Assembly: GCA_016932615.1 (NCBI GenBank)
Contig: JAFGCN010000017.1
Coordinates: 1 to 49,270, forward strand
Reading direction: 5' to 3'
Length of the DNA stretch: 49,270 bases
From: Candidatus Aenigmatarchaeota archaeon
GTDB taxonomy: Archaea; Aenigmatarchaeota; Aenigmatarchaeia; QMZS01
A program made the position numbers and the translations under genes. Under the pieces are notes generated by a model. It made no database searches and was not told where the DNA came from. It worked only from the letters and a program-made list of their open reading frames with translations. Of this stretch, positions 915-43,492 are shown one piece after another (position 1 is the stretch's first letter; every line of letters starts with the position of its first letter).

Positions 915-1310
915 ATGAAGGGTCAGATTTCCGTAGAAATGCTTATCGTTGTGGGCTTAGGCATGCTTATAGTAAGCATATATATACTATATGGATATGC
1001 CTCTATAGATAGCTATAAGAAAGGAAACGACCAGTTTTTGCTAAAAGATTCTCTTGAAAAAATCGCAACTACCGCAAAGTTTGTAGCTCTTCAGGGGGAG
1101 CCGGCAAAACAGACTGTGAATGTGTGTTTTCCAATGTCTCTTGAAACCTGCTCTGTTTACAACACTACTCTTCAGTGTTCCCTCAGGACTGGCGAGTATA
1201 TTTATCAGGATTCTGAAGTGGTTTTGAATGGCACAATGCCCGGTATTTCTGGTTGCTGGAACATTGTTGTGGAAGCCAACCCTGCGTTTGTCAATCTTTC
1301 CATATCATGA
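915..1310 (+). CDS. Small pilin-like protein with a class III (archaeal type IV prepilin) signal peptide
   Basis: N-terminus MKGQISVEMLIVVGLGMLIV has the K-G-Q / hydrophobic stretch pattern cleaved by archaeal prepilin peptidases. First gene of a translationally coupled operon whose stop overlaps the next start. Confidence 0.6.
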   Translation: MKGQISVEMLIVVGLGMLIVSIYILYGYASIDSYKKGNDQFLLKDSLEKIATTAKFVALQGEPAKQTVNVCFPMSLETCSVYNTTLQCSLRTGEYIYQDSEVVLNGTMPGISGCWNIVVEANPAFVNLSIS

Positions 1311-1675
1311 GATGCCAGGCGTCTGTTGAGCTTCTTTTGCTTCTTGGAATTCTTTCTGTGATTTTTGCCATATCTTTTAGCTATTATGTTGGATATGGAA
1401 TATACCAGGCCTCCGTTTCGACAGGCGGTGACTATCGTTCGGTATGCAAGCAGATTGCAGGCGAGATTGACAGTGCCCTTCGCATTGGCCCGGATTATGA
1501 GAGGTCATTTTATCTTCCTTATGGAGACTATAACGCAACACTCCAGAATTATGAGATTGTCGTTAATTATCCTTCTGGCATGGCAGTCTGTTACACATAC
1601 GTAAATATCACTCGGAACCTGACTATTGGAAAAAATACCGTAATATATAATGGAACCGGCTTCTACCTTGAGTAG
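1307..1675 (+). CDS. Small pilin-like protein (start chosen at the ATG overlapping the upstream stop; the track ORF starts at 1253)
   Basis: In-frame ATG at 1307 gives MRCQASVELLLLLGILSVIFAISF, a Q-A-S-V-E-L hydrophobic N-terminus resembling a class III signal peptide. ATGA overlap with the upstream gene. Confidence 0.45.
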   Translation: MRCQASVELLLLLGILSVIFAISFSYYVGYGIYQASVSTGGDYRSVCKQIAGEIDSALRIGPDYERSFYLPYGDYNATLQNYEIVVNYPSGMAVCYTYVNITRNLTIGKNTVIYNGTGFYLE

Positions 1676-2144
1676 AGCATCAAAGGGCCAGATGCTTTCA
1701 TTTGATTTCCTGATTGTGTGCTCGGTTTTCCTTTTCCTCGGAGCGCTTTTAGTCATCCAGGCGGGATATGCCGTAAAGGAGTCGATGGAGATTGAGCGAA
1801 AGGATGTTATTTTGAGGGATGCGAACACCCTGGGGGAAATTTTTTTCAGGGAGGGGTATCCGCGAGACTGGAATGCAGCGAATGTGCAGATACTGGGGCT
1901 TGAATCTTCAGGAAGGATTAGCGATGAAAAGCTGGAAAAATTTGGGCAGCTCGATGTAGGGCGTACAATGATCCTTATGGGGCTTGAAAGTGAATATAAT
2001 ATTACCGTTTTATGCGGCGATGAAGTTGTTAGGTCGTACGGGGCGGCTTATGATGGTGCCTCGTCTATTGTCAAGAAAGAGCGTGTCGTGGTTTTGGAGA
2101 ATGGGACTATTGCAACAGTAAGGGTTCTTGTTTTTGAAAGATGA
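1650..2144 (+). CDS. Small pilin-like protein with a class III signal peptide (alternative TTG start at 1668)
   Basis: SRASKGQMLSFDFLIVCSVFLFLGALLV contains KGQ followed by a hydrophobic helix. The stop overlaps the ATG of the next gene (atga at 2141-2144). Confidence 0.55.
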   Translation: MEPASTLSRASKGQMLSFDFLIVCSVFLFLGALLVIQAGYAVKESMEIERKDVILRDANTLGEIFFREGYPRDWNAANVQILGLESSGRISDEKLEKFGQLDVGRTMILMGLESEYNITVLCGDEVVRSYGAAYDGASSIVKKERVVVLENGTIATVRVLVFER

Positions 2145-5100: not shown

Positions 5101-6013
5101 GTACAGCACTTATCAGGGTCCGGTGGATGCAATCCAATACTCCTGCAATGCGAGGGATGACAATATTACGGTATATTCTGTTGCTTTTGGCTCTGATGCA
5201 GACACACTAACACTCAAGAAAATCGCCTGCTGGAACTGCTCTGCAAATAATTGGCTTCCAGGGGAAAATGAGACCAACTGCTCGAAGTACTTCCAGAGCA
5301 ACAATGAGGAGGAGCTTATGGAAATCTATAAGAGGATAGCTGATGATATTGTCAACATGTCTGCGCAGCGCCAGGCGGTTTACGTTCAGGGTGACTGGGG
5401 CTTTAGAAACGTGCTGTACAATGATTCGCGTATGAGCATAAACCTTACAGAGGAATCAGTTTTTGGAGAAGGTGAATTTTTGCTTACCTTTGAGAAAAAC
5501 TGCACAGGCGGATACTGCATTCTTAACAAGTCTGCTGATGTTTCCCTGATTGACGCAAGAGTTACTTCTTATTCGGGTGATTATTGGGCCGACCTGATTC
5601 AGGTTTCAAACTCTTCAGGGCACGTTTCAACGATTTACAACTTGTCAACATATGGGGATTTTGAAGTTCTGGGAGACCCTTACAGCATAAAGCTTCCTTC
5701 GGATTTCTTTTCCGACGGAGCAAACAACATTACGCTTTATCACGGCATCGAGAACGGAAACCCTCAAAACCAGTCGAAGGCATACCGGGTCATATATTCC
5801 ATAAAAGTTCCGGGTTCGGTGGGATATGGTGGGGATGAATTTGTGTTTAATACCTCACAGGAGGCAAGAGACAATGCAACTGAGCGGCTTATACAGCATA
5901 TTGAATCAAAGACCGGAGAGGAAATCAGCAGCTATGAGATAAGCACTTCTCTTACAATAGAAGGCATAAGGGAACTTTCACAAATTGCTCTTGTGAGGTT
6001 TATTATGTGGTAA
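2141..6013 (+). CDS. Large pilin-like-N-terminus surface protein with an interrupted vWA domain. A jelly-roll (LamG/ConA-like) and a PA14-like region lie in the insertion. Candidate pilus-associated adhesin.
   Basis: N-terminus MKGIVFSLDLVLGISLMVLLL is pilin-like. The vWA metal-ion-binding (MIDAS) motif DAVLITDVSGSMS is near nt 3340, followed by NRVGLVSFDD and SGGGTCICCGIEKSTELL. The rest of the vWA (RAMLVMSDGGANYEC...ITVYSVAFGSDADTLTLKKIA) appears only near nt 5040-5235. Dozens of N-x-S/T sequons throughout. Confidence 0.75.
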   Translation: MKGIVFSLDLVLGISLMVLLLASNYYLFSPQPFYEETGMDQKSALARDFLEALATMRVNETTQSPTLNQLKGGGLTDDEMELSVLDFILTYWAYSNREGDYTKRDYAENITKELINATRCLERYNFSLSIGSDPVVGDYAGTQNSVVVSSLIENTYSSNSRHGYMARAYLNGIKTERSRYLYFGGFVGQGNISALLELPEYESVTGAELNVFSGANLSLYINSNFSGYFSINESAPNFTANIVSSGINISNFREGNNTLGILFNSTDYRYSYIGGGFLRVDYTTSAFYDEKPGLVEEYRFPGIEGLINVYDGVYLQGNVTEIHLHYYNEIPGSEVYLNFANATLYNSNASGESLIELNESNISEGLAGAGLNVQGLTGSTVPLRVGIRSLNYTRGQGFGDAVLITDVSGSMSTCDVYSNNSCDCDAPPPCYRNRINVAKDSDREFVSGMLGLNGNRVGLVSFDDALSGSISLTGDNQTLQSEIDTYVSGGGTCICCGIEKSTELLSQKYLSVDALPSGSIWKYTTSYPLLAPPEMDGRNWTDKDYNDSAWAEGPAALGFFNISWDYRRQLNLSNAAGALYSYPVRISINLSGDYSDGRVKQYCGDARFTYYNSTSGTETELPYLIESCNLSGSDNATFWVSVPYMAASSETTLYLYYGNPSASPGNNLSICPAGVQGGRCLLFYGGFEDSSAVGPTGFNTSVWSVDYGSDGDECRVHTDSADVRTGSWGGEMEEGDEGEVAISTRDGLLNLSGCTNCRLDFWIKLTTNWEDADRIYVDVYDGSWHYGELNLNGETYDTGNWHQFTLNLSEYDTSSPVRVRFDNEASDDNEEAHLDDVMIYHYALSEPYLGSIGSQEGTTAVLSSNVSTVLANNGGDYYFRKKFFIESTEMLINSSLYVFSDDAAEVYLNGNLIDNDTSEHNASYWNRVMPFDKSLFRLGWNVVSARVKNDDSSAALFDLRLETVVGRKRAMLVMSDGGANYECTPWQYSTYQGPVDAIQYSCNARDDNITVYSVAFGSDADTLTLKKIACWNCSANNWLPGENETNCSKYFQSNNEEELMEIYKRIADDIVNMSAQRQAVYVQGDWGFRNVLYNDSRMSINLTEESVFGEGEFLLTFEKNCTGGYCILNKSADVSLIDARVTSYSGDYWADLIQVSNSSGHVSTIYNLSTYGDFEVLGDPYSIKLPSDFFSDGANNITLYHGIENGNPQNQSKAYRVIYSIKVPGSVGYGGDEFVFNTSQEARDNATERLIQHIESKTGEEISSYEISTSLTIEGIRELSQIALVRFIMW

Positions 6014-6014
6014 T

Positions 6015-7262
6015 ATGAATGGCTTTCTTTATTCCGGGCTTATGGTTCTGGTCCTGTTTGCTCTTTTTTCAATAATGCTTGTGCAAAGGGAAAGAGTAAG
6101 CGAAGAAAGAGAAACATTTTCACTTAACGATAGGCTGATGGATATGGATGCTTCTTATGACAGCATAGAGCGCAGCATACATACCCTTTGTGATGTTTCG
6201 CTCAGGCGCGCCATAATATCATCCGAGAACTCGGTTTTGATTGATGGGGTATCATTTTTTTCTGGCGGGCAAAAAGCTCCGGACGCAATAAAGCAGCTGA
6301 TGTGGAATGGAACACTGCCAGCTACCGGCGAGGAAGTAACATTTATGGAAAATAACACTCTTGAGCACAATCTGGAGCTCCTTGAGGAATATTATTCTCG
6401 TAACCCAAAGGGATACAATGTCTCAATAGACTTTGGCTATGAGAGTGCAAAGGTCGGGCTTTATGATGCCTTTAATGTCTTCATAAACTCTACCGTTGAG
6501 GTGAATATTTCGAAAGAAGGTGTGGCGAACCTTTCTAGAAGATTTATTGTTCTGGAGAAAGTTTCAATCTTGGGGTTTGAAGACCCGCTTTACCTGGAAA
6601 ACCTTACCGGGGGAACGCTTTCCCGGGTTTTCAACAAAAGCCAGCATACTGATAACTTTACCCGAAGGGTGCCTCTGATTGTTTTATCCGGAAATGGGAA
6701 CTGTTATGGTGAGCTTACGGACGATGCAGGCGCTTCTGAAAAGGAACATAAAATATTCTTCAATGATACTGTTTATCCCGGCCTGGATTCATTTTGTGGG
6801 GTGGTTTACGAGTCAGGAAGCGAGCCTGCTACAAGCTACCTGAGAGTGGATTCGCTGGCGGGGCTTTCATCTCTGTCAGGCCAAAGCTTTCTTATTTTTG
6901 GAAGCGCTGAATCATGGAGTGAGGAAGATGGGCTTTTGGACGTTTCAAATCTCATTGTTCATGTCCGGGAAGGAAGCTATATAAACTCAAGCAGCGCCCC
7001 CAGCTTTTTCGACGCGCTGGAGGGAACATTTGAATGCACTTATTGCGCCGAGTATGGCCCTGTGGGTCTTGAGACCGTACTTGACAAAAACATCCTTTCC
7101 GCACCGGAACTTCACATCAATGTAAACACAACCGCCTCCAACACGCTTCATGAATACCTCCAGGGGCAGGCGGGGGAAAAGTTTGGGCTGAACGAATCCT
7201 CAGTTGACCCGACATTTTATGAATTCCGGCTGGATGGCTCCTCCGGAAGTTATCTTGGTTAG
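6015..7262 (+). CDS. Secreted or membrane-anchored glycoprotein with a hydrophobic, pilin-like N-terminus; last gene of the operon
   Basis: MNGFLYSGLMVLVLFALFSIMLV is a hydrophobic N-terminus. Starts 2 nt after the upstream stop. Many N-x-S/T sequons. No recognisable catalytic motifs. Confidence 0.5.
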   Translation: MNGFLYSGLMVLVLFALFSIMLVQRERVSEERETFSLNDRLMDMDASYDSIERSIHTLCDVSLRRAIISSENSVLIDGVSFFSGGQKAPDAIKQLMWNGTLPATGEEVTFMENNTLEHNLELLEEYYSRNPKGYNVSIDFGYESAKVGLYDAFNVFINSTVEVNISKEGVANLSRRFIVLEKVSILGFEDPLYLENLTGGTLSRVFNKSQHTDNFTRRVPLIVLSGNGNCYGELTDDAGASEKEHKIFFNDTVYPGLDSFCGVVYESGSEPATSYLRVDSLAGLSSLSGQSFLIFGSAESWSEEDGLLDVSNLIVHVREGSYINSSSAPSFFDALEGTFECTYCAEYGPVGLETVLDKNILSAPELHINVNTTASNTLHEYLQGQAGEKFGLNESSVDPTFYEFRLDGSSGSYLG

Positions 7263-25498: not shown

Positions 25499-26164
25499 AT
25501 GCTTGAAAAAAAGATAAGGTATCTTCAGATTGCGTTTAACGGCGGGCTTTCTTCTGTCGAGGAAATACTTCCGCAGATTCCTGCAAATGAGCGGATTCTT
25601 ATCGAGGCGGGAACTCCATTCATAAAGAAGGAGGGCTTTCGGGGGATAAGGAGAATTTCAGAGCTTTGGAAAGGCATGGTTGTTGCAGACCTCAAGACAA
25701 TGGACGGGGCAGTCGGTGAAGTTGAGCTTGCATATCGCGCCGGAGCGACTGCCGCAACGGTTCTTGGAAGCGCTTCAAAGGAAACGCTTGACCTGTTCAT
25801 AAAAAAGTGCAGCGAATTCCGGATGGTTTCGATGATTGACCTTATCGGGGTCGAAGAGCCGCTAAAAATTCTGTTGGGCTTGAAGGTGCCCCCGTCGGTT
25901 GTGGTGCTTCACAGGGGCCGCGACGAGGAGACGACAAGGGGAAAAGTGATTAAGTACAGGCATATAAACAAGATTAAAAGCAAGTTCGATGTCCTGATTT
26001 CTGCGGCGGGAGGAGTCGACCTCAAGGAGGCGAGCAGCGCGATTTTTAACGGGGCAAACATAGTCGTGGTAAACCTGGTAAGCGAGGACGACCCCTGGAC
26101 GGGGATAGGCCTGGTAGAAGACATACCGAAGGTGGCGGAGGAGTTTTTGGAGACAATAGACTAA
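25499..26164 (+). CDS. Orotidine-5'-phosphate decarboxylase superfamily protein, most similar to 3-hexulose-6-phosphate synthase / KGPDC
   Basis: LQIAFNGG...LIEAGTPFIKKEG...VVADLKTMDGA...AGATAATVLG matches the HPS/KGPDC signature (DhiEvGTPl...aDlKt.D.G). Confidence 0.55.
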   Translation: MLEKKIRYLQIAFNGGLSSVEEILPQIPANERILIEAGTPFIKKEGFRGIRRISELWKGMVVADLKTMDGAVGEVELAYRAGATAATVLGSASKETLDLFIKKCSEFRMVSMIDLIGVEEPLKILLGLKVPPSVVVLHRGRDEETTRGKVIKYRHINKIKSKFDVLISAAGGVDLKEASSAIFNGANIVVVNLVSEDDPWTGIGLVEDIPKVAEEFLETID

Positions 26165-26721
26165 AATTTTCTCCACTTCCCGAATGTTGTTGTTTCATCG
26201 AGCATGTTGTTTTTTTCTTTTGAGAGAAAGCCGATTTTCATGAAGCTCTCGCAGCGCATCTTTCCCTGGATGTAGAGTGACTTGTATTTTCCTGTCGAGT
26301 ATATGCCGGACATCACGCCTTCGAGTGCCAGCAGCTTTTTCAGCCCCTCAAGCTGCTCAACGCCGCCGGAAACTTTTATGAGCCGTTTTTGCGAGGAGAC
26401 TGAACTTTTGCCTTCAAAAAACCCGCGAAGAAAAGCTCTCCTCTTTTCCGAAGTGTCCAGCGCTTCAGTGGGCAGTTTTTCCTTGTCAAAGGGAAGCGAA
26501 AGGCCGATTTTTTTCAAAAGGCCTTCGACCTCTTCTTTTTGGCTAAGCGACACCTCAATTGCTTTTCCCTTTTTTATCCGGGCTTTTCCAAATTCAATAA
26601 GGCGGGAAAAGACAATTTCCGAAAATTCTTCCCGCTTTGTCTGGAATTCTATCCGGTGGCCTTTGCCCAGCTTAACCGAGCCGGAAGCGTACAGGAGCCC
26701 CAAAAGCTCAAAATCTCGCAT
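26161..26721 (-). CDS. Protein with two degenerate LAGLIDADG-like motifs (start at the internal MRDFELLG; the track ORF extends to 26784)
   Basis: ELLGLLYASGSVKL and RRAFLRGFFEGKSSVS sit about 100 aa apart, the spacing of a two-motif LAGLIDADG fold. The first motif lacks the catalytic acidic residue. Confidence 0.3.
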   Translation of the reverse strand: MRDFELLGLLYASGSVKLGKGHRIEFQTKREEFSEIVFSRLIEFGKARIKKGKAIEVSLSQKEEVEGLLKKIGLSLPFDKEKLPTEALDTSEKRRAFLRGFFEGKSSVSSQKRLIKVSGGVEQLEGLKKLLALEGVMSGIYSTGKYKSLYIQGKMRCESFMKIGFLSKEKNNMLDETTTFGKWRKF

Positions 26722-26742
26722 AATATATAAAAGAATCCAAAA

Positions 26743-27702
26743 TTGTGTATGGGGGAAGCAGAGTATGTTAAGGAAATCAAGCATGGCGCAGTTGGTTTCA
26801 AGCTTCCCACTTTGATTGACCTTAATCCTAAAACCGAAAACAGCGTTACCAACAGGGTAGAGACCCCGACAAGCAGGAATTATGTTTCAAGAGACGAAGA
26901 AACAGGAGCAGTAAAGCCCAACAAGCAGAAAGACGCAAGAGAGCTGGCCGGGGAAATTTACCGCAAGATTGGAGATCTTCACGCGAAAGGCAGGAAGCTC
27001 GATGAAATATATGATTTACTTGAGAAGGAGGGCTATGAGTATGCTGCAATCGAGCCGGTTTTCATCGATTATCTTGAGAAGTGCCGCGGTTCTCTGGGGC
27101 AGCAAGGACAGCAACAGCAAAGGCCGCCCGCCGCAAGCCCTGCGCCAGGCACTGCAGGAATGGTTGCTCCAAGGCCGCAGGGAAATCCGTCTTTCCAGGG
27201 AGAGCACGAGCTTGAGCTTGTTGAGATTCACGCAAACCCGCCTGAAATGCCCAAAGCAGAAGAAATGCCAAGAGGCGACAGAAGAATGGAATCCGTTGGC
27301 CAGCCAGGTGCAGAACAGTCGCCTCCCGCAGAGGAGGATGGAATCGGGCGAAGCACTGGGGACTTTGCGCCTCTTTTCGTAAAGGTCGGAAAATACCGGG
27401 AAACGCTCGAGCATCTAAACGACCTTGAAAATTACCTAAAAGGCATGACACGGCTCCTGGAGCTCGTTTCTGAGCTTGAACAGGTGAGGGTCATGAATAT
27501 CTCTGCAATCGAGAAACTGCAGAAAAAGGCGATTGCAACCTCTTCGAAGCTTTCTTCAGGGCTTCTGAAGCCAAGAGGCATGCAGCTGGAAGGCACGAGG
27601 GACAGCGAGGTTGAGCTTACAAAGCTGGGGGATGTCATTTCCGACCTGAGCAAGGAACTAACAATCCTGAAAAAGGAAGTGGATAAGCTGGGGCAGGTAT
27701 AG
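26743..27702 (+). CDS. Hypothetical protein with a Q/P-rich linker and a C-terminal coiled coil
   Basis: 319-aa ORF. Middle region QQGQQQQRPPAASPAPG. The C-terminal ~110 aa have a heptad-like pattern (LELVSELEQVRVMNISAIEKLQKK...LTILKKEVDKLGQ). Confidence 0.4.
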   Translation: MCMGEAEYVKEIKHGAVGFKLPTLIDLNPKTENSVTNRVETPTSRNYVSRDEETGAVKPNKQKDARELAGEIYRKIGDLHAKGRKLDEIYDLLEKEGYEYAAIEPVFIDYLEKCRGSLGQQGQQQQRPPAASPAPGTAGMVAPRPQGNPSFQGEHELELVEIHANPPEMPKAEEMPRGDRRMESVGQPGAEQSPPAEEDGIGRSTGDFAPLFVKVGKYRETLEHLNDLENYLKGMTRLLELVSELEQVRVMNISAIEKLQKKAIATSSKLSSGLLKPRGMQLEGTRDSEVELTKLGDVISDLSKELTILKKEVDKLGQV

Positions 27703-28847: not shown

Positions 28848-31800
28848 ATGTCACTGCCTTGGAAAAAGGGGTCGAGCGCTTCATTTAAATTGAGTCTATG
28901 CCTGATAACGCTTATTTTGCTCGCCTTTTGCGTTAATGCGGACACTTATTCGGCGTTTTGCACCACAGGCACCGAAATTTATACAGATAAGCCGGATTAC
29001 GAGCCGGGAGAGACTGTGAATATTACCGGGCACGGCTTTCTGCCAAAGGCACCATTAAATATTACGATTACCCGGCCGGACCGTGTTACCGACTCCTGCG
29101 GCTCTTCTTCCTGCTATTTTAGGTTCTTGAATGGCACCCTGATATCCGACAGGGAAGGGTCTTTTTTTGATTATCTTTACCTTCTTAACGGCATAACCGG
29201 AAATTACACCGTCCGGGTGACTGACGGCAAAAATTATGCGGAATTCTGCTTCATGGATGGCCGGAATATTACAAACGTGACTCTTGACGGCTTAAGCAGC
29301 GTTTCAGTTCTTCCAAGCGCTTCCATTACTGCTGCGGTAACCCTTGTTTCGACATCCGGCAGCTACTGGCGCTCCACAATGTACCAGATTGAGGGTGAAA
29401 GCGCCGTGTGCGTGGATACGCCAGACCACACTGAGTCAGGAACTCACACTTATACAGAGCCCTTTTCAATAACAGCCCCTTCTGCGCCCGGCGTTTATGA
29501 TGCCAGTTTTATCGCTTATCTTAACAATGACTGTACAGGAAGCAGCCCAAGCAATACCTATACTTTAATCGACGGCATAACAGTCACATCTGACGCCGTA
29601 TGCGGCGATGGGGAGATTGAAGCGCCCGAATCCTGCGATGATGCTAATACCGACGATGCTGACGGCTGCTCGTCTTCCTGCCAGGTGGAATCCGGCTGGT
29701 CCTGCGCTGGTGAGCCAAGCTCTTGCGCAGAAGTGTGCGGAAATGGCATAATAACTGCAACCGAGGAGTGTGATGATGCCAACACTGATGACTCCGATGG
29801 ATGCGGCTCATCCTGCGCCATTGAAGCCGGTTGGTCCTGCACAGGTGAGCCGAGTGAGTGCCTGGTGTATAATCCTGCCCTTCCAAGCTCTTGCGGAATA
29901 GATATTGCGCTTATTATAGACAATTCCGGGAGCATTGACAACTCGGAGCTCACGGCAATGAAAAACGCGTTTAAGGGCTTTGTTGACGCTTTCCTGCCGG
30001 ATACCCCCACCCACATAGCGGTTGTCAAGTTCAATACTGATGGAGACCTTGTTTTGGACTATAGCGGAGACGCAACCGAAATAAAGAATGCAATTGATTC
30101 GGTGTCGACAAGCGATGGCTACACCAACTGGGACGATGGGCTAAAGGAGGCGCAGGATGAGTTTGACAACTCGCCAAAGCCGGACTTGTACGTTTTTGCT
30201 TCTGACGGGCAGCCGAACCGCCATGGCGACCCGGCAGTGGATGGAGAGCCCGAGTCTCTTGCTGCAGCTATAGAAAGGGCAAACCAGTTAAAGCTGTCTG
30301 GCGTAAGGATAATCACTCTTGGAATTGGCGTTACAGGTGACGGCGCTTCCAACCTTAAAGCAATCTCAAGCGAGGATGCCTACTATTCCTCAGGATTTGA
30401 CACCCTTGCGGATGACTTGGCTGACCTTGCCGATGAGCTTTGCGGAGGCACGATAACAGTAAGGAAGCTGGTTGACGGAAGCCCTGCAGGCGGCTGGGAA
30501 TTTTCGGCAAGCGTAACCGATGGAGAATCAATCCCGGCAACTTCCACAACCGGTGAAGATGGCTTCATAGACCCGGTTTTTGACATAAACATAACAGACA
30601 CGGTTTCAACTGTGGACATAACAGAAACTCCCAAGCAGGGATATAATTTTGTCAGCGCAGCTTGCAAAGACCAGGATGAAAATCCGGTGGGAACGCCTGG
30701 CGTTGGAACGGTTACTGGAATAGTGATTGGTCCAAATGATGCGGTTTACTGTGAATTTAACAACAGCGGGGTTTTGTGCAGCGAGCACTCCAATTCAGAG
30801 TCCTGTGAGGAAGATGAGGGCTGCAAGTGGTGCCCTTCCTGCAACAACCCTTTCAGGAATGTTTATTATCCTCTCGGAAACTGCATAAGCGAGTCTGCTG
30901 AATGCGCCTGGAATGGCTGCTCGGTCGAATGCGGAGCCGAGTGCGATACTGAGACTCCATGCCTTCCAAAGCAGGATGAGAATTACTGCTACTATGGCGG
31001 AGAATGCAATTCCTCATGCTTATGCGGTTACTTGTCCCAGTTCTGCCCACCACCTGGGACTGAAGATAATGGAACCTGCTACTATGGCGAGCAGTCCTGC
31101 ACCGAAAACGGCTGCCAGGTTACAAGCGCAGAAATGTCTTGCCCGGGGCTTGTTTGCGATGAGATTCTTGGCCCTGTGGACATGATTGGGCCTGTAACCA
31201 GTAATTTCACTGCTGACCCGATTCCACCTCAATTCCTTCCAGGGCCACTTCCAGCAAAGTGGCTGGTAAACATCAGCGCCCTTGAAACAGAGGACTGCTC
31301 GAATGTTTCTGCTGCGGAATATTTTGTTTCAAAGAATGTTTGCTATTATCCTCCGGACACTGAGAGGGGAACGCCTATGGGTGCGCTTGACGGCTCTTTT
31401 GGCGGGCTTGTGGAATTGGTAAACACAACTCACACATTTAATGAGGAAAACGACGGGCTTTACTGCTTTTCCATAAGGGGCAAAAACGACGCTGGCTACT
31501 GGGGCAATATATACTGCGACTGCATAAATGTGGATACCCAGGTTCCGCTTGACCCGACAAATGTTACGCTTACGCCTTATATATGCAACCAGAACAGGAC
31601 TTTGAACGCAAAGGTCTGTGACGCAGAGTCGGATGTTGTGGGCGGCGAATATTATTTTGACATATTTACGGACTGGATTCCTGGCGGGCAGGGCCTTTTG
31701 ATGTATGTGCAGAGCCAATATGTACTTGAAGAGCCCGAAGGAAGATATTTTTGCGCTAACCTGAATGCCACTATAGACGTCACAAATGTGTCTGATGGCT

Positions 31801-34800
31801 GCCACTGGGTGCGGCTTCACGGAGTGGATGATGCTGGAAACTGGGGAAAGCCAAGCCCCAACTACCAGCACAAGTTTATACTTGATAAGACCCCTCCAAG
31901 GACAAACAAGATGATTAATGGAACGGTTATTCCTTGCGATTTGGCAGATGACGGCGAGGGCAACGCGCTTGACGCAGGGTGCTTTTACACCGTGCAGGGA
32001 ACCGAGATTCTTCTCGAAGGGTTTGATGACCTTGGGTCCCAGAACGAATCCTGCCGGGCGGAATCCCTGACAACCTGGTACAGAATCAGATGGAGAAATA
32101 ACTGGACAAGCCCTTGGGAGGACTGGTCAATCTGGACTCTTTACAGGGAGCCGATTGTCCTGAGAGAAGACTCAATACACGAGATAGAATATTATTCTGA
32201 AGACTCGTGTGGAAACGCGGAAACTCACCACTACGAGCTTGACATAGTTGACACTGCGGAGCCGAAAACCGAAAAAACAATTGAAGGAGTAAGGCTTGAA
32301 GGCGACGGCCAGACTTTTGACTGGTGGATTACCCAGGAGTCGACAATTATCCTTAACTGTACAGATACTGACCCTCACCCTGTCAGCGGAGTAACTCTTT
32401 ACTGGAGGTATAAGGTGGATGGTGGGAACTTTACCGGCTGGAATGAGGTGTTTGGAGGATATGATGCTTTCAGCTATCCTGAAGACTCGGTTCACACACT
32501 GGAATATTACTGCACGGATATTCTTGGAAACAGGGAAGAAACGCAGGTTGAGGTCGACAAGGTGGACACAACCCCGCCTGAAACTAACAAGACTTATGGC
32601 TGGCCATTGTTCGATACTGATGGCTCATACCCCAAGTGGATAAACTCCAGCACTCCCGTCACATTGGAATCAACTGACGGCGGCGAAATATGCGCAGTCG
32701 GAGTCGATAAGACTTACTGGATGAACACGATAGTTAACGATTATATGTGCGAGGAAGCGCCTCTAAACTGCCAGCCAGTCCATGACTTCGAGGATGAGGG
32801 CTGGACAGAATATACTGCCCCGTTCTACAAGACTGAAACCTCATGCCACCTTATAGAATACTGGTCTGAAGACAGGCTTGGAAACCGCGAGAGAATAAAA
32901 GCCCAGTGCGTATTCGTGGATAACGAGCCGCCGGTAAGCGTGAAAGGCATTCAGGGGCCTCAGATAGAAACTGACTGCAGGGAGATTGGTGAGGGTAACT
33001 ACTCGGATGGCTGCTATTATGTGACAACTGAAACTGAGGTCACCTTGGAATGCCGGGACTCTCTACCACACCCGGTCGGAAACGTTGATTTATTCTACAA
33101 AATCGACTGGAAGAATGCTACAGGAGACACCTGGATTTCCGGAACCTGGATAAAAAGCACAAACCCGGTTACATTTTCGTACGAAAATGATTCTTTCCAC
33201 CTGCTCGAGTGGTACTGCATAGACGCCCTTGGAAATGCCGAAGAAGTTAGAACCGAGCTTGACATGGTTGATTCAAGCCCGCCTGAGGTAGTAAAGCAAG
33301 TGAACGGCGCCCTAATGGGAAACAGCACTATTGATTGGTACCTCAATGGCACTTCAAACATCACACTCAACTGCACGGATGTCATGCCCCACCCTGTCGG
33401 CGACGTTACGCTTAACTGGACTTTATACTGGAGCGAGGAGTGTATCAGGCCGGACTGGGAGGAGCTTGCAAGTGGAGTCACCGATGGCTACAAGTCATTT
33501 ACAAGCTTCAGGGATTCCTGCCACAAGCTGGTTTACTGGTGCTCTGACGCCCTTGAAAACACGGGCCCTCTTACAGAAGAAATTGACGCTGTTGACACCA
33601 AGCCGCCGGTTTCATGGAAGGATATTAACGGCACGTACGTAAACTGCACAGAGGGAGAGGTTTGCGACAAGTGGATTACCCAGAATACACTTCTTGAGCT
33701 TTACTGCGAAGACCAGGCCCCTCACCCCGTGGGCGGCGTTAAGATTTATTACAGGTACTTTGTGGATGATGTCCTCTTCCAGGACTGGACAGAATACACA
33801 AGGGCGATAAATTATGGCGAGGACTCGGTTCACCGGCTTGAGTGGTATTGCGTCGATGCACTTGGCAATAAGGAAGAGACCCAGGTTGAAATTGATAAGG
33901 TGGACACAACCCCACCTGAAATGAACAAGATTATCGGAGAGCCGAAGATTGAATGCACTGAAGGTGAGGGCTGCGATTACTGGCTTCGCGACCACTACAC
34001 AAATATCACCCTCGACCCTGTTGATGGAGGAGACGTTTGCGCAATAGACCGGGTGCAGTGCGATTACTGGTACCTTGTAAACAACACGACCTGGGAAGGG
34101 CCGTTTGAATACAGGGGGCCGATAGTGTTTACTGAGGACTGCCTTCACGAGCTCCACATTTCCTGCCGTGATGCCTTAGGCAATGTAGTTAACGATACTG
34201 AACTTTTCAGGGTTGACTCACAGCCGCCGGTTACTGTCAAGAGCTTTATCGGCCCGAAGTATCCTGCCTCCGAAAAGGACGAGGAGCAGTTTGAGCTTAC
34301 TGAAGAGCAGGCAGAAAACTTTTGGATGAGGGACCATGTGACTGTAGTTGAGCTTAACGCGACAGACACAATAGAGCCATGTGCTGTCGGCATAAGAGAG
34401 TTGTGGTACCGGGTTGGAAAGGACATGGACGGAGACGAAATGGTCGATGGATTGGAGATGGGCAACTGGAGCGTCGTTACAGGAAGCTATGTAAACTTCA
34501 CGGTTAATGAGGACTGCCTTCACAAAATTGAGTGGTACTCAGTGGATATGCTTGGAAACACTGAGGAAAAGCGGTCCCAATACCATAGGGTCGATTCAAC
34601 GCCGCCGGTTACAACAAAGACTTTCGATGGCCCTACCTGGGACGACACAGACAAGACAAATCCCTACTGGGAAAATTACTGGGTTTCAAATGAAACTGAT
34701 ATAATACTTTTGGCAGTCGATGAGGCAAGCCCTTGCGCTGTTGGCGTGGACTACATACACTACGAACTCTGGTGGGACTCTGACGGTGACGGAGAAGTCG

Positions 34801-37800
34801 ACATGAAGATTGATGATGAAAATGCCTCCTCTTCAATCGTTACAATTAACCTTGAGCGGGACTGCATTCACAAAATTGTCTGGTATGCAGTAGACCTTCT
34901 TGGAAACCCTGAAGATGAGCATATACAGTACCACAAGGTAGACCAGACCCCACCCAGGACTTACAAGCTGATTGAAGGGTCGATGTGCAATGCAACTGAA
35001 GAGGACCTAGAGCTATTCAACCTCACTCTTGATGAGGAAATAGAGTCCTTCTGGCTTACAAGCAACTCTACCATAACACTCTCAGCGGTTGAGGGGATGA
35101 CTAACTGCTCATCAGGGCTTGACCACCTTCACTATGAGGTTTGGTACAGCGAGGACGGAACTGGAGATGAGTGGGTGAAGTTGGATGAACAGGACGTGCC
35201 TGCAAACGGAAGCTCAGAACTAAACACTACCCTAACTCTTGGCGAGGACTGCCTTCACAAAATTGTCTGGTATGCCGTCGACCGGGTTGAAAATATAGAA
35301 AAGGTACACATTCAGTACCACAGGGTCGACAACCACGCGCCTGAAATCCTGAAGGAAGTCGGCTGGCCAAGTATTTACATGGGCAAAAACCCTCAGACCG
35401 GAGAGGATGCCTGGGATATTACCACCGATACTCCGATAAGCCTTGATGGGACTTACGATGCTCTTGAGCCGTGCGCTTCGGGAAGGACAAAGATCGAGTA
35501 CAGCATATGGTACGATGGAAGCGGAATCTGGGACAGCTGGAAGACTTACACTGGAGAGTTTAACCTTCTTGGCGACTCCACCCACCGGCTGAAAGTGAGG
35601 GTCACGGACTGCCTGGGAAACACAGTTGAAGATATAGAGACTTTCGTGGTCCATGAGAATCTTCCGGGTGAGGAATGCAAGGTTCCAATAAAGTACTCAG
35701 GAATGTTTGGCTGGGAGTGGCGTTCAGTAGAGATACCTGAGATGATGGTGGACCTGTACACAAACGACTCGAGAATGTGGAATGTCATGAAGCTCATGGA
35801 AGGACAGTATGATATCATCTACTTCCAGGACTACCTTACTGGGGACTGGACCTCTTATGACCCTGAGCGGCTGAACAACGAAACAGGAGAGCCGATGAAC
35901 AGCCTGAATGATTTTGACCAGGGTCCCGGAAAGTATTATATAAAGCTCAAGGATGACGCAAGGTACATGAGCTACTTTGTCATTTTCAATGACCTTCGGG
36001 AGGGCTGCTCCATGGATCTTACGGAGTGCTGGGACCGGCTCGATAACGATGCTGATGGGTACTGGGATTACCCTTACGATACGGAGTGCCTGGATAGAGA
36101 GGATGGCCTTGAGATTTCCGTTTGCGGAAATGGCATCACGGAGCGGTTTGAGGAATGCGATGACAATAACACGCAGGGAGGAGATGGTTGCTCAGAGGAA
36201 TGCACGCTTGAGCTGGTAAATGACTCCTGCGTTTCCGAGAAAGGTTATACTCTTAATGCCGATTTCGATGAAGGCACTTTGTCGGGTCTGGAACACACCA
36301 CCGTCCCAGACCAGCTTCAGATTATTGAGGGGCAGGTTACGACCTACCCGATACTTTGGGTTGCAAATGCCGGGGAAGATTCTGTTTCGAAATGGGACAC
36401 TTCGCAGAATAGGGAGCTTGCAAGGTACCACACCTGGTTTGGAGTTCTTGCTGACCATGGGGCATGGTCTGGCGCTGCCCCATCCAGGACGGCAGTTGAC
36501 ACTGACGGAAACTGCTATGTCGCAAACAGGCACTTTGACGATTACCCGGCAGATGTCATAAAGATTCTTGCAAATGACTGGATTGACAGGAACGGAAACG
36601 GGATAATGGACACTTCATATGACGCAAACAATAATTCAGTAATCGAGGGGGGGGAAATGCTCCCAATGAATGACACAAATGGAAACGAAAGGATTGACCC
36701 CGAGGAGATAACCGATGAGAGGGTTGCCTGGGTTGCGACTGTCGGGCCTTCAAGTGGCCTTGGAAGGGGGCTTGCAATAGACCTCGAAGGAAATATCTGG
36801 CTTGGCCTTTTCAATGAAAGGTCCTACTATAAGCTTAACGGGACTGACGGAAGTGTAATTCAGGGCCCGATTTATGTTGGGGCGCACACGCCTTATGGCG
36901 CTTTGGTCGACCGATATGGCTTCCTTTGGGGCGCATCCCTTGACAATAACCTGCTTAAGCTTGACACCAATACAGGAAACTGGACGATTTATACGCACAG
37001 CGGCAGCAACTATGGAATTGCTCTTGGATATGACTCTGAGGGCAGCACCCAGGTTTATCTTGGGTACCATAACCCTTACCTTCAGTTTAATTCTTCCGAT
37101 GAGACCTTCAGCCAGCCGGCAACTTCAGACTATTATTCTTATGGAGTTGCGACGGATTCAGAAGGGAACATCCTTTCCGGCAGCAACTCGGATGGCCGCA
37201 TGGGAAAATACGCGCCTGATGGAAGCTTGATATGGCTTGCTCCTGCACAGGTGGCCTCTGAGATAAGAGGCACTGTTGTTGACAGTGATGATAATGTCTG
37301 GGCAATTCACAGGGGAGACAGCAAGATGGCAAAGTTCAACGGAACTGATGGGTCTCCTTTAGGTGTGTTTGACACGGGACTTCAGCCATATACCTATAGT
37401 GATGCAAGCGGGCTCGGGCTTAGGGGCTCTATTTCAGTTGGGGTATGGACGGTTGTCTTTGACTCGAAAAAGAACGGAACTTCTTTTGACGCGGTTTCCT
37501 GGACGGGCTATTCCCCTAACGGGACATCAATTACCGTGAAGGTGAGAAGTTCTTCAGATAATTTGTCCTGGTCCTCCTGGGAGACTGCGCAAAATGGCGT
37601 TTCTCTCAGCACAACACCTGATGGAAGGTATCTTCAGGTTGAAGCTACTTTGAAGGGTGTTGCAGGTTCCGAGTCACCAATACTTTATGACTTGTCTGTT
37701 CAGGCGACCTGTTCAGACGATCTGGATGCAAGGATTGATTCATGCACAGACCTTGATGGGGATGGTTATTCCATAGAGGGAGAGGATTGCGGTCCTGTCG

Positions 37801-38471
37801 ACTGCAACGATGGCAATAACGCCTCCTGGAGGGTTGGCACCTTCTATTATGACGGTGACGAGGATGGGTTCCACCTTTGGGGAGAGGAAAACCAGAATGA
37901 AGAAGACCTGTTTTCGATATGCTACGGCTCTGAAATCCCAATTGGTTACTCGGAAAGCACTTCCGGGAGGGATTGCGATGATGATGATTCTGCAGTAAGC
38001 CCTGCAGCGCAGGAGATTTGCAATAACACTATTGATGACGATTGCGATGGCCTGGTTGACTGCGATGATGAGCAGTGCGAAGCTGAATGCTCTGAGGAAG
38101 AAAGCGGGAACGGCGCAGAAGATGAGCTTTCCTGCGAGCCGGAGCTTACTTGCGATTATGGAATATGCGCGGATGACTCCTGGTGCATGGACAATGTCTG
38201 CACGCCGCAGGGCTATGAAATCGGAAGATTTGTGTCCGAGAGCGTTACGAGCTGGAATTATGGCTGCGACGCTTACTGCGGCTCAACAACCTCGCAAAAC
38301 CAGTGCGCCTCCTCTGAAGGCGATGCAATAGGCACTGCTGCCTGCGGGAGGTGCGAGTGCTGGCACGATACCGAAACGAGCTGCGCTGATGAACTTGACA
38401 ATGACTGCGACGAATTGATTGATTGTGATGACCCTGACTGTAGTCAGGATGATAATTGCATTCCTGTGTGA
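28848..38471 (+). CDS. Giant secreted multidomain surface protein (3207 aa): signal peptide, Cys-rich repeats, vWA, about 11 tandem Ig-like repeats, beta-propeller-like region, MopE-like Cys/Asp repeats
   Basis: Signal peptide MSLPWKKGSSASFKLSLCLITLILLAFCVNA. CGDGEIEAPESCDDANTDDADGCSSSC and CGNGIITATEECDDANTDDSDGCGSSC at nt ~29596-29860 (a third copy near 36118-36213). vWA metal-ion-binding (MIDAS) motif IALIIDNSGSID (~29901). About 11 repeats of ~115 aa, each ending in ...H.LE(W/Y)YC.D.LGN.E......VD.TPP.T.K, at nt ~31885-35680. NGTDGS-containing propeller-like repeats at ~36350-37440. C-terminal DLDGDGYS...DCNDGN / DCDDDDS...CNNTIDDDCDG motifs. No TM or C-terminal anchor. Confidence 0.8.
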   Translation: MSLPWKKGSSASFKLSLCLITLILLAFCVNADTYSAFCTTGTEIYTDKPDYEPGETVNITGHGFLPKAPLNITITRPDRVTDSCGSSSCYFRFLNGTLISDREGSFFDYLYLLNGITGNYTVRVTDGKNYAEFCFMDGRNITNVTLDGLSSVSVLPSASITAAVTLVSTSGSYWRSTMYQIEGESAVCVDTPDHTESGTHTYTEPFSITAPSAPGVYDASFIAYLNNDCTGSSPSNTYTLIDGITVTSDAVCGDGEIEAPESCDDANTDDADGCSSSCQVESGWSCAGEPSSCAEVCGNGIITATEECDDANTDDSDGCGSSCAIEAGWSCTGEPSECLVYNPALPSSCGIDIALIIDNSGSIDNSELTAMKNAFKGFVDAFLPDTPTHIAVVKFNTDGDLVLDYSGDATEIKNAIDSVSTSDGYTNWDDGLKEAQDEFDNSPKPDLYVFASDGQPNRHGDPAVDGEPESLAAAIERANQLKLSGVRIITLGIGVTGDGASNLKAISSEDAYYSSGFDTLADDLADLADELCGGTITVRKLVDGSPAGGWEFSASVTDGESIPATSTTGEDGFIDPVFDINITDTVSTVDITETPKQGYNFVSAACKDQDENPVGTPGVGTVTGIVIGPNDAVYCEFNNSGVLCSEHSNSESCEEDEGCKWCPSCNNPFRNVYYPLGNCISESAECAWNGCSVECGAECDTETPCLPKQDENYCYYGGECNSSCLCGYLSQFCPPPGTEDNGTCYYGEQSCTENGCQVTSAEMSCPGLVCDEILGPVDMIGPVTSNFTADPIPPQFLPGPLPAKWLVNISALETEDCSNVSAAEYFVSKNVCYYPPDTERGTPMGALDGSFGGLVELVNTTHTFNEENDGLYCFSIRGKNDAGYWGNIYCDCINVDTQVPLDPTNVTLTPYICNQNRTLNAKVCDAESDVVGGEYYFDIFTDWIPGGQGLLMYVQSQYVLEEPEGRYFCANLNATIDVTNVSDGCHWVRLHGVDDAGNWGKPSPNYQHKFILDKTPPRTNKMINGTVIPCDLADDGEGNALDAGCFYTVQGTEILLEGFDDLGSQNESCRAESLTTWYRIRWRNNWTSPWEDWSIWTLYREPIVLREDSIHEIEYYSEDSCGNAETHHYELDIVDTAEPKTEKTIEGVRLEGDGQTFDWWITQESTIILNCTDTDPHPVSGVTLYWRYKVDGGNFTGWNEVFGGYDAFSYPEDSVHTLEYYCTDILGNREETQVEVDKVDTTPPETNKTYGWPLFDTDGSYPKWINSSTPVTLESTDGGEICAVGVDKTYWMNTIVNDYMCEEAPLNCQPVHDFEDEGWTEYTAPFYKTETSCHLIEYWSEDRLGNRERIKAQCVFVDNEPPVSVKGIQGPQIETDCREIGEGNYSDGCYYVTTETEVTLECRDSLPHPVGNVDLFYKIDWKNATGDTWISGTWIKSTNPVTFSYENDSFHLLEWYCIDALGNAEEVRTELDMVDSSPPEVVKQVNGALMGNSTIDWYLNGTSNITLNCTDVMPHPVGDVTLNWTLYWSEECIRPDWEELASGVTDGYKSFTSFRDSCHKLVYWCSDALENTGPLTEEIDAVDTKPPVSWKDINGTYVNCTEGEVCDKWITQNTLLELYCEDQAPHPVGGVKIYYRYFVDDVLFQDWTEYTRAINYGEDSVHRLEWYCVDALGNKEETQVEIDKVDTTPPEMNKIIGEPKIECTEGEGCDYWLRDHYTNITLDPVDGGDVCAIDRVQCDYWYLVNNTTWEGPFEYRGPIVFTEDCLHELHISCRDALGNVVNDTELFRVDSQPPVTVKSFIGPKYPASEKDEEQFELTEEQAENFWMRDHVTVVELNATDTIEPCAVGIRELWYRVGKDMDGDEMVDGLEMGNWSVVTGSYVNFTVNEDCLHKIEWYSVDMLGNTEEKRSQYHRVDSTPPVTTKTFDGPTWDDTDKTNPYWENYWVSNETDIILLAVDEASPCAVGVDYIHYELWWDSDGDGEVDMKIDDENASSSIVTINLERDCIHKIVWYAVDLLGNPEDEHIQYHKVDQTPPRTYKLIEGSMCNATEEDLELFNLTLDEEIESFWLTSNSTITLSAVEGMTNCSSGLDHLHYEVWYSEDGTGDEWVKLDEQDVPANGSSELNTTLTLGEDCLHKIVWYAVDRVENIEKVHIQYHRVDNHAPEILKEVGWPSIYMGKNPQTGEDAWDITTDTPISLDGTYDALEPCASGRTKIEYSIWYDGSGIWDSWKTYTGEFNLLGDSTHRLKVRVTDCLGNTVEDIETFVVHENLPGEECKVPIKYSGMFGWEWRSVEIPEMMVDLYTNDSRMWNVMKLMEGQYDIIYFQDYLTGDWTSYDPERLNNETGEPMNSLNDFDQGPGKYYIKLKDDARYMSYFVIFNDLREGCSMDLTECWDRLDNDADGYWDYPYDTECLDREDGLEISVCGNGITERFEECDDNNTQGGDGCSEECTLELVNDSCVSEKGYTLNADFDEGTLSGLEHTTVPDQLQIIEGQVTTYPILWVANAGEDSVSKWDTSQNRELARYHTWFGVLADHGAWSGAAPSRTAVDTDGNCYVANRHFDDYPADVIKILANDWIDRNGNGIMDTSYDANNNSVIEGGEMLPMNDTNGNERIDPEEITDERVAWVATVGPSSGLGRGLAIDLEGNIWLGLFNERSYYKLNGTDGSVIQGPIYVGAHTPYGALVDRYGFLWGASLDNNLLKLDTNTGNWTIYTHSGSNYGIALGYDSEGSTQVYLGYHNPYLQFNSSDETFSQPATSDYYSYGVATDSEGNILSGSNSDGRMGKYAPDGSLIWLAPAQVASEIRGTVVDSDDNVWAIHRGDSKMAKFNGTDGSPLGVFDTGLQPYTYSDASGLGLRGSISVGVWTVVFDSKKNGTSFDAVSWTGYSPNGTSITVKVRSSSDNLSWSSWETAQNGVSLSTTPDGRYLQVEATLKGVAGSESPILYDLSVQATCSDDLDARIDSCTDLDGDGYSIEGEDCGPVDCNDGNNASWRVGTFYYDGDEDGFHLWGEENQNEEDLFSICYGSEIPIGYSESTSGRDCDDDDSAVSPAAQEICNNTIDDDCDGLVDCDDEQCEAECSEEESGNGAEDELSCEPELTCDYGICADDSWCMDNVCTPQGYEIGRFVSESVTSWNYGCDAYCGSTTSQNQCASSEGDAIGTAACGRCECWHDTETSCADELDNDCDELIDCDDPDCSQDDNCIPV

Positions 38472-39382: not shown

Positions 39383-39572
39383 TGCCTCTGCGGGGAATTT
39401 CGCTTCAACCCCCTGCCTTAGGGTTATTTGAGGGCTGTTTTTTCGAACCCCGGATCACCTCCTAGCTGCCATTTGATTCCAAGAAATTTTTTCTTGGGGT
39501 TGTCAGACCTTTAGCCAATTAAGCTGAAGGGATGACCGCAGGGAAGCATGTTATCCACTACACTACAGAGGC
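39383..39572 (-). tRNA. tRNA-Arg(GCG) with two introns (anticodon loop 37/38, and T-loop)
   Basis: Minus strand: acceptor GCCUCUG/CAGAGGC (7 perfect bp), U8 A9, D-arm GUGU-AGUGGAUA-ACAU, anticodon stem CUUCC / GGAGG with loop CUGCGG interrupted after G37 by about 70 nt. T-stem CGGGG, then UUCGAAA, then about 45 nt inserted before CCCCG. Discriminator A. Total 190 nt for an ~76-nt mature tRNA. Confidence 0.55.
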
Positions 39573-39610
39573 ATAAATTTATTGCCTGAAAATTGATTAA
39601 ACGTGCAAAT

Positions 39611-41674: not shown

Positions 41675-41765
41675 AAATATAGCCCCGCACGGTCAGTCCT
41701 TCTTTCTTAAAAAGAAAGAAGGTCCGACACCACCAAGAAAGAACTGCCCTCTTTGGCTAAATTGT
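41675..41765 (-). pseudogene. Degenerate partial copy of the adjacent intron-containing tRNA (tRNA fragment / pseudo-tRNA)
   Basis: Minus strand ...GGTGGTGTCGGACC-[CCTTCTTTCTT/AAGAAAGAAGG hairpin]-ACTGACCGTGCGGGGC-TATA parallels the neighbouring tRNA's GTGGTGTAGCGGCC, its CCTTTTCTT/AAGAAAAGG hairpin, ...GCGCGGGGC-TATA. It lacks a T-arm and the 5' acceptor strand. Confidence 0.35.
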
Positions 41766-41773
41766 TAATTTAT

Positions 41774-41952
41774 AGCCCCGCGCGGATTCGAATTCCGCGA
41801 AAAGTTTTCTTTTGGGGGTTGTAAGACCTTTTCTTATCAAGAAAAGGGATTTCCGCGGTCACAGGCTAGCTTCAATCATTGGCTAAGGATTTCTCCCGCC
41901 TCAAACCTTTGATTTCCAAAGGCCTGTATGCTTGGCCGCTACACCACGGGGC
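41774..41952 (-). tRNA. tRNA gene with about 100 nt of intervening sequence (intron or introns); anticodon not confidently assigned
   Basis: Minus strand: 5' GCCCCGU pairs with 3' GCGGGGC (7 bp). D-arm UGUA-GCGGCCAAGCA-UACA. Perfect T-arm GCGGA-AUUCGAA-UCCGC immediately before the 3' acceptor strand. Discriminator U. 179 nt in total. The internal hairpin CCUUUUCUU-GAU-AAGAAAAGG looks like an intron element. Confidence 0.45.
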
Positions 41953-42149
41953 TATAAAATAAAATACCTTCAAAATTATGAATATGTGGCAAAAACTCAA
42001 GGAAATCCGGAAAACCTCCAAATTCCTGAAGGTTACCCCCGAGCAGGCACCTAGTACCTTAAGAAGGTTCAAGAAAGAGATTGAAGAGAAGAAATAATGC
42101 TTGAATAGTTATATTTAGATTATTGATTATTATAGTCATTGTTTTTGAC

Positions 42150-42227
42150 AGGATACGGTAAGTGGTCAAACCCTCCAGTTTGTCGAACTGGCGCCTAAGT
42201 GACTTCGTGGGTTCGAATCCCACTCCT
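42150..42227 (+). tRNA. tRNA-Asp(GUC)-like gene with a recognisable anticodon arm, T-arm and 3' acceptor strand but no canonical 5' acceptor strand
   Basis: Anticodon stem CCAGU/ACUGG with loop UUGUCGA (U33, GUC). T-arm GUGGG-UUCGAAU-CCCAC. 3' strand UCCUUAU + U. The upstream sequence GGATACGGTAAGTGGTCAAACCC has a D-loop-like GUGG, but the 5' strand complementary to UCCUUAU is absent. The variable region is 15 nt, too long for tRNA-Asp. This suggests non-canonical introns or a split/permuted gene. Confidence 0.4.
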
Positions 42228-42252
42228 TATTCGATTGCCTAAAGGCTCTTAG

Positions 42253-43265: not shown

Positions 43266-43389
43266 CTTACTTTATGGGGCGGTAGCTCAGCTTGGGAGAG
43301 CGCACGGCTGAAGCATCCCTGAAAGGGCCAATAGGGTCATTTTGGGACTTAGTTACCGTGATGTCGTGGGTTCAAACCCCACCCGCCCC
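43266..43389 (+). tRNA. tRNA-Phe(GAA) with a 41-nt intron at the canonical 37/38 position
   Basis: GGGGCGG-UA-GCUC-AGCUUGGGA-GAGC-G-CACGG-CUGAAG[41-nt intron]A-CCGUG-AUGUC-GUGGG-UUCAAAC-CCCAC-CCGCCCC-A. All stems are perfect Watson-Crick. CCA is not encoded. Confidence 0.85.
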
Positions 43390-43492
43390 ATCCTCAAGAC
43401 ACTCGGATAATCGCTAGAGGAAGCAATTCAATTATAATGCAACGTTGTGGGATGCACCGTATTATCCAGTATGCCCTATTTAGTAATATGCT

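Follow-up and report, generated by a model that had tools for sequence, protein, structure and literature searches.

A tRNA-Arg(GCG) gene with two predicted introns and a shared intron module in an Aenigmarchaeota genome

The window, meaning the whole 49,270-nt stretch of DNA analysed, comes from an Aenigmarchaeota (DPANN) archaeon and very probably contains a functional tRNA-Arg(GCG) gene, from whose 190-nt precursor two introns would be spliced out. The gene occupies positions 39572..39383 on the minus strand. Its anatomy, the helices at its splice sites, and the conservation of both with covariation are shown by the sequence analysis. Multiple tRNA introns are a recognised peculiarity of archaea, best known from a group other than the present one, and a structured module shared between introns is a more novel lead than the twice-split gene itself.

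Anatomy, identity and host of the gene

The precursor reads, from 39572 to 39383, GCCUCUG UA GUGU AGUGGAUA ACAU G CUUCC CUGCGG, followed by 72 nt, then A GGAGG UGAUC CGGGG UUCGAA, followed by 45 nt, and finally U CCCCG CAGAGGC A. Exon 1 (37 nt, 39536..39572, minus strand) provides the acceptor 5′ strand, the D-arm, the anticodon-stem 5′ strand and the anticodon loop to G37, with the anticodon GCG, and is followed by intron 1 (72 nt, 39464..39535, minus strand) at the canonical position 37/38. Exon 2 (22 nt, 39442..39463, minus strand) comprises A38, the anticodon-stem 3′ strand, the variable loop UGAUC, the T-stem 5′ strand and the T-loop UUCGAA (54-59), and intron 2 (45 nt, 39397..39441, minus strand) interrupts the T-loop at position 59/60. 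Exon 3 (14 nt, 39383..39396, minus strand) carries U60, the T-stem 3′ strand CCCCG, the acceptor 3′ strand CAGAGGC and the discriminator A73; the CCA is not encoded. The sequence-only reading had proposed a tRNA-Arg(GCG) gene interrupted after position 37 and in the T-loop, and in-silico splicing, the bulge-helix-bulge (BHB) elements and the orthologues all agree with that proposal; its coordinates were exact, and its insertions of 'about 70' and 'about 45' nt correspond to 72 and 45 nt.

In-silico splicing, by removal of pre-tRNA positions 38-109 and 132-176, gave a 73-nt product that ARAGORN identified as tRNA-Arg(gcg) with a normal cloverleaf and with A20, C35 and G36 present. The stems had been described as perfectly complementary, which holds in that all positions are paired but is a slight overstatement, as 19 of the 21 pairs are Watson-Crick and two are G.U (G10.U25 and U28.G42). 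All invariant tRNA nucleotides are present (U8, A14, G18G19, A20/A21, U33 and GUUCGAAUC, with the D-loop AGUGGAUA numbered here as G18 G19 A20). The raw, unspliced locus was matched neither by ARAGORN, with or without intron mode, nor by Rfam, at the gathering threshold or at E<=10, and the raw orthologue loci likewise had no ARAGORN or Rfam match. This silence can be attributed to the two introns and is therefore not counted against the gene; it also means that clade genomes would seem to be without this CGC/CGU-reading tRNA when routine finders are used. An exact-pattern scan of metagenome contigs with GGATAACATGCNNNCCCTGCGG returned just two chance matches, both within bacterial coding sequence.

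An A/T-rich, TATA-box-like element, TTTAATCAATTTT (39589..39601, minus strand), is located 17-29 nt upstream of the mature 5′ end, and the near-identical TTAATCAA(A)TTTT is found at an equal upstream distance at two orthologues (L074 and L067). This conserved element (TTAATCAATTTT) is a putative promoter. Archaea read NNY codons with a G34 tRNA. CGC and CGU codons are used 34 times across nine ORFs of the window, and an arginine tRNA with G34 is therefore needed; a second, intron-free tRNA-Arg(GCG) copy may be present elsewhere in the genome.

The ORFs of the window are archaeal (FEN-1, aEF-1alpha, a ThrRS with an archaeal editing domain, a kleisin and others), and the two that flank the tRNA gene are 100% identical to JW727_04545 and JW727_04555 of a Candidatus Aenigmarchaeota archaeon MAG (NCBI). 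Aenigmarchaeota belong to the kingdom Nanobdellati, i.e. DPANN, so that these identical proteins assign the window to DPANN and not to Thermoproteales; taken as a marker of Thermoproteales, the introns would mislead. The overall G+C content of the window (47%) also shows no likeness to a GC-rich thermophile genome. The skipped tag JW727_04550 suggests that a feature is already annotated between the flanking ORFs. An exact-protein look-up of the EF-1alpha gave no match, and its called start codon is probably different. The 296-aa ORF next to the tRNA gene is membrane-anchored and is immediately preceded by a 3207-aa ORF (28848..38471, plus strand), whose homologous neighbours in related contigs are likewise of giant size; the Rfam matches to the C/D-box sRNAs sR18 and sR19 inside the 3207-aa ORF (38033..38175) scored 24-27 bits, below threshold, and are probably spurious. 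A 207-aa ORF with LAGLIDADG-like domains (26161..26784, minus strand; homing-endonuclease or WhiA-like fold) stands alone amid pyrF-like and other housekeeping genes.

Splice motifs and their conservation in orthologues

When the 190-nt precursor is folded to minimum free energy, its acceptor, anticodon and T stems form unaided, and the anticodon and T arms are each lengthened by a 4-bp helix (H). At intron 1, this helix pairs C32UGC35 with GCAG at intron positions -6 to -3, leaving a 3′ bulge CU|A38 that adjoins the anticodon stem, and the 5′ site (G36-G37|U) follows the helix in a 5′ bulge GG|U. At intron 2, U54UCG57 pairs with the intron sequence CGAA, the 3′ bulge AU|U60 adjoins the T stem, and the 5′ site (A58-A59|A) lies within a 6x3 internal loop that leads into an 8-bp helix, with no adjacent h′. 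Both 3′ splice sites thus have the configuration of EndA-type BHB introns, a 3-nt bulge between the exon stem h and the 4-bp H. The boundary of the T-loop intron is ambiguous by sequence because of an A-run, and was set at 59/60, with the T-loop UUCGAAU, by the BHB register. In the predicted structure, the T-arm site 59/60 is the geometric counterpart of the anticodon-arm site 37/38, and the intron 2 motif is of a relaxed hBH type.

A strict hBHBh′ motif can be drawn for intron 1 with a 3-bp h′ (CAU/AUG), at a predicted -22.8 kcal/mol compared with -29.6 kcal/mol for the form in which the GUCA/UGAC base of the module hairpin described below closes the 5′ site, a cost of ~7 kcal/mol. The strict form is not kept in the orthologues, in whose introns the module hairpin sits in the place of h′ after a 1-5 nt loop, and for this reason it was not taken as the main model. 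At both junctions, where the initial description had proposed a search for BHB motifs, the 3′ halves as modelled are canonical, whereas the 5′ halves are relaxed in both introns, and the 5′ sites fit the relaxed hBH/HBh′ motif classes described previously (PMC4090602, PMC4033280). The relaxed 5′ sites imply a broad-specificity splicing endonuclease, in agreement with the expectation that the introns would be informative about endonuclease specificity.

A FEN-1 scan of species genomes identified one close relative (L001; 67% identity, all other matches being <=51%), and further contigs were obtained by exact-protein look-ups of homologues of the tRNA-flanking ORFs. Complete orthologues of the tRNA gene were found in L001 (6635..6365; intron 1 of 102 nt and intron 2 of 95 nt), L074, which equals L075 (6023..5744, minus strand; 134 and 73 nt), and L076 (3378..3134; 97 and 75 nt), and each was called as tRNA-Arg(gcg) by ARAGORN when spliced, as was the window gene. 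In sample SRR17234074 the gene is split over two contig ends, with exon 1 and 31 nt of intron on L067 and the end of intron 2 with exon 3 on L073; the 37-nt exon 1 of L067 is identical to that of the window. Both sites, 37/38 and 59/60, are occupied by introns in all of these orthologues, and the introns measure 45-134 nt when the window is included. The exons are conserved while intron sequences and lengths diverge freely, and the neighbouring kleisin is 61-67% identical among the species compared. In more distant Aenigmarchaeota (L062, L068-L072), homologues of the 296-aa ORF that flanks the gene have no adjacent tRNA-Arg.

The exons and intron ends of the four complete genes (window, L001, L074 and L076; four distinct sequences) were aligned, and all 116 of the 116 paired cells, over 29 pairs (21 cloverleaf and 8 splice-helix), were retained with no disruptive change, in an alignment that was built around the proposed boundaries and so leans towards the structure. 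Compensatory double changes were seen in the acceptor stem (U6-A67 / C-G), the anticodon stem (U29-A41 / A-U), the T stem (G50-C64 / U-A) and the T-loop/intron-2 helix (G57-C / A-U). As a control, partners slid by 1-3 columns gave 40-53% pairing and zero double changes. The H helices lie in the register predicted from the stems alone, with covariation, in 8 of the 8 introns of these four genes.

Three further features of the orthologous loci were noted. The assembly of SRR17234074 breaks within the tRNA-Arg introns (L067 3044..3111 and L073 5715..5800), and this genome probably has many near-identical copies of the repeated module. The tRNA-Arg gene is co-directional with the kleisin gene in the window and convergent with it in L001, L073, L074 and L076, a contrast with all four relatives that indicates inversion of the tRNA gene alone in the window lineage. 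The L074 orthologue has A37 in place of G37 beside the anticodon, which is unusual for a CGN-reading tRNA.

Predicted splicing and alternative readings of the locus

In archaeal tRNA splicing, the bulges are the cleavage sites of EndA, and RtcB ligates the exons (PMC4090602, PMC4033280); it is by analogy with this system that expression, cleavage and the enzymes are assigned here. Transcription would give a 190-nt precursor carrying two archaeal introns of the protein-spliced kind. The loop of each arm would contribute its first four nucleotides (32-35 or 54-57) to a helix with intron positions -6 to -3; the resulting 3-nt bulge would hold the 3′ splice site beside the anticodon or T stem, and the 5′ splice site, two nucleotides beyond the 4-bp helix, would fall in a bulge or internal loop that an intron hairpin closes. 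An EndA with relaxed substrate specificity would then cut all four sites, and an RtcB-type ligase would join the three exons, with the CCA added later.

No EndA or RtcB gene was detected within the window by Pfam scans or, for EndA, by tblastn with the M. jannaschii EndA sequence, a probe validated against PDB 1a79. The sole tblastn match in the DNA searched was a Micrarchaeota locus, and a large protein search with the same probe returned Methanococcales and Nanoarchaeota/Woesearchaeota entries, none of them labelled Aenigmarchaeota. Relaxed motifs need an EndA with an added specificity loop. Broad-specificity DPANN enzymes include the ARMAN epsilon2 type (PMC3239211, PMC3488258) and L3-loop alpha4 types (PMC5829648), and several DPANN lineages combine EndA variants carrying extra loops with increased tRNA disruption, in a genome set that did not include Aenigmarchaeota (PMC5829648). 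DPANN genomes have also shown incomplete tRNA sets that needed manual curation (PMC5829648).

The gene described here resembles the disrupted tRNA genes of ARMAN and other DPANN, members of the same superphylum in which non-canonical and multiple introns co-occur with the extra-loop EndA variants. In Thermoproteales and other Thermoproteota, up to three protein-spliced introns occur per tRNA gene, at 37/38 and at non-canonical sites including the T-arm (Sugahara et al. 2008; PMC4033280, PMC4090602, PMC8450103). The likeness to these multi-intron genes lies in the combination of 37/38 and T-arm introns, in the relaxed hBH/HBh′ motifs and in their being missed by simple tRNA finders, but the host is an Aenigmarchaeota (DPANN) MAG and no crenarchaeote. 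Compared with a canonical 37/38 intron, intron 1 of the window can be drawn with a 3-nt bulge, a 4-bp helix, a 3-nt bulge and both outer helices, and with cleavage between the second and third bulge nucleotides; unlike in a canonical intron, its strict hBHBh′ form is not kept by the orthologues, and the module-hairpin form is predicted to be the more stable of the two.

Two other intron types were rejected. Self-splicing group I or II introns are expected to measure hundreds of nucleotides, compared with 72 and 45 nt here, and the locus has no Rfam match at E<=10. As for a C/D-box sRNA intron of the tRNA-Trp type, in which box C (RUGAUGA) and box D (CUGA) accompany guide sequences, direct reading found UGAUGA in neither window intron, the CUGA of intron 1 is unconserved (other copies have UUGA, CUUA or CCGA), and there is no Rfam C/D match at the locus.

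Since two free deletions might force a cloverleaf from any 190 nt, a chance resemblance was considered, and by a rough estimate stem complementarity alone is indeed not rare when the excision points are free. Against this, the invariant tRNA nucleotides are present and the spliced form is called by ARAGORN, the splice helices sit in the predicted register, and independent orthologues share the exon structure; the orthologues and the covariation in practice already refute this reading, to which next to no probability is given. A decayed pseudogene, in which a tRNA-Arg gene was broken by two insertions that are never removed, is very improbable. It would account for the failure of standard tRNA finders to call the locus, for the presence in the insertions of a repeated module that is also found outside tRNA genes, and for the relaxed 5′ splice motifs, but not one of the 21 cloverleaf pairs or 8 splice-helix pairs is lost in the four species, and four of them show compensatory double changes. 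Such intact pairing, next to introns that diverge freely in sequence and length and between conserved exons, excludes chance and is a strong argument against a pseudogene. The conserved promoter-like element upstream and the use of CGY codons also speak against a pseudogene. The decayed pseudogene named beforehand as the outcome that would overturn the proposal is contradicted by the covariation.

It is similarly improbable, and to about the same degree, that the 37/38 intron alone is spliced and that the T-loop insertion stays in the RNA, for example as an expanded T-arm, or is processed in another way, for example by a different nuclease. Intron 2 of the window does lack an h′ helix beside its 5′ site, and it is the shortest copy (45 nt) and has no module hairpin. 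Nevertheless, the helix between U54-R57 and intron positions -6 to -3 is kept together with the 3-nt bulge beside the T stem in all four species, where an intron C->U change makes up for G57->A and a U.G variant also occurs, and position 59/60 mirrors 37/38 geometrically. The variation in the length of intron 2 from 45 to 95 nt across the orthologues is also incompatible with a structural role in the mature tRNA. Splicing of both introns from a functional gene therefore stays the preferred reading.

Other interrupted tRNA genes and the shared intron module

All four tRNA genes of the window (Arg, Gln, Phe and Asp) have introns, which in three of the four are non-canonical or multiple, and the Gln, Phe and Asp genes also fold only after intron removal. 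Heavy disruption of tRNA genes thus extends to Aenigmarchaeota. The tRNA-Gln(UUG) gene (41953..41773, minus strand) has two introns, one of 48 nt (37/38; 41868..41915) and one of 60 nt (53/54; 41793..41852), and was called by ARAGORN solely after in-silico splicing; its T-arm intron is shared by orthologues in L001 (partly masked by N), L073 and L074. The 100-nt N run of L001 (3292..3391) falls exactly inside this T-arm intron. The tRNA-Phe(GAA) gene (43276..43390, plus strand) has a single 41-nt intron at 37/38. In its L001 orthologue (~1065..1330, minus strand) site 37/38 is uninterrupted, and introns lie in the D-loop (41 nt) and in the T-loop (~145 nt, best fitted at 54/55), so that intron positions differ between orthologues. 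The tRNA-Asp(GUC) gene (42132..42231, plus strand) has a 15-nt intron at acceptor position 3/4 that forms the hairpin GTCATTGTTTTTGAC. Although the raw sequence was called by ARAGORN, it scored 28.2 bits in Rfam, below threshold, and folded into a proper cloverleaf once GTCATTGTTTTTGAC was removed; the variable region has ~10 further nt, perhaps a third and very short intron.

Many of these introns contain a conserved structured module of ~50 nt that begins 0-2 nt past the 5′ splice site and consists of a 3-bp basal helix, an internal loop, a 9-bp pyrimidine/purine hairpin and the tail ACAACCCCAAAAGAA. In intron 1 of the tRNA-Arg gene (39486..39537, minus strand) it comprises the basal helix GUCA/UGAC, the internal loop, the Y/R hairpin and the tail ACAACCCCAAGAA, and scores 56.8 bits with the covariance model R1; the consensus fold (alignment A2) shows covariation in 8 of 12 pairs. 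R1 scores of 43-67 bits were obtained for the Arg 37/38 and 59/60, the Gln 53/54 and the L001 Phe T-loop introns across five genomes, and a search of 20 other archaeal loci found nothing comparable, the module being confined to this clade. Intron 2 of the window tRNA-Arg, the shortest copy, is without the module hairpin. Copies are located in the window at 39486..39537 and 41805..41854 (minus strand) and at 41691..41744 (plus strand), in L001 at 6548..6597, 6425..6474, 1181..1228 and 1760..1809 (minus strand), in L073 at 3733..3784, in L074 at 4257..4307, 5787..5831 and 5941..5988, and in L076 at 3176..3223 and 3290..3343.

Similar introns were thus found in different tRNA species and at different positions, as in a transposed or paralogous intron family. 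Intron transposition was inferred in Thermoproteales in 2010 work (summarised in PMC4090602 and PMC4033280). That case is paralleled here by the closely similar intron sequences at the Arg, Gln and L001 Phe sites just listed and by the differing intron positions of tRNA-Phe orthologues, a likeness in pattern; here, in contrast, the shared part is a defined ~50-nt module that always abuts the 5′ site and has copies also outside tRNA genes. A tentative explanation, which we consider possible but somewhat short of probable, is a lineage-specific mobile family of structured BHB introns in one Aenigmarchaeota clade, to which both tRNA-Arg introns would belong, whose module would give the 5′-site helix and which would have spread to 37/38, 53/54, 54/55 and 59/60 in several tRNA genes and left solo copies. 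If true, tRNA-intron transposition would have been caught here in DPANN, separately from the case of Thermoproteales. Reviews treat the gain of archaeal tRNA introns as an open question (PMC4033280, PMC4090602), and the shared module, the shifting tRNA-Phe intron positions and the solo copies provide comparative material on it.

Two copies of the module lie outside recognisable tRNA genes, at 41691..41744 (plus strand) in the window and at 1760..1809 (minus strand) in L001. The solo copy of the window (41678..41785, plus strand) is placed between the 15-nt direct repeats TATAGCCCCGCACGG (41678-41692) and TATAGCCCCGCGCGG (41771-41785), the latter being the antisense of the tRNA-Gln 3′ end; these repeats could represent a duplicated target site, the remnant of a 3′ exon or a scar of integration. 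The solo copy of L001 is intergenic and abuts the start codon of FEN-1 on the opposite strand, with no tRNA recognised around it.
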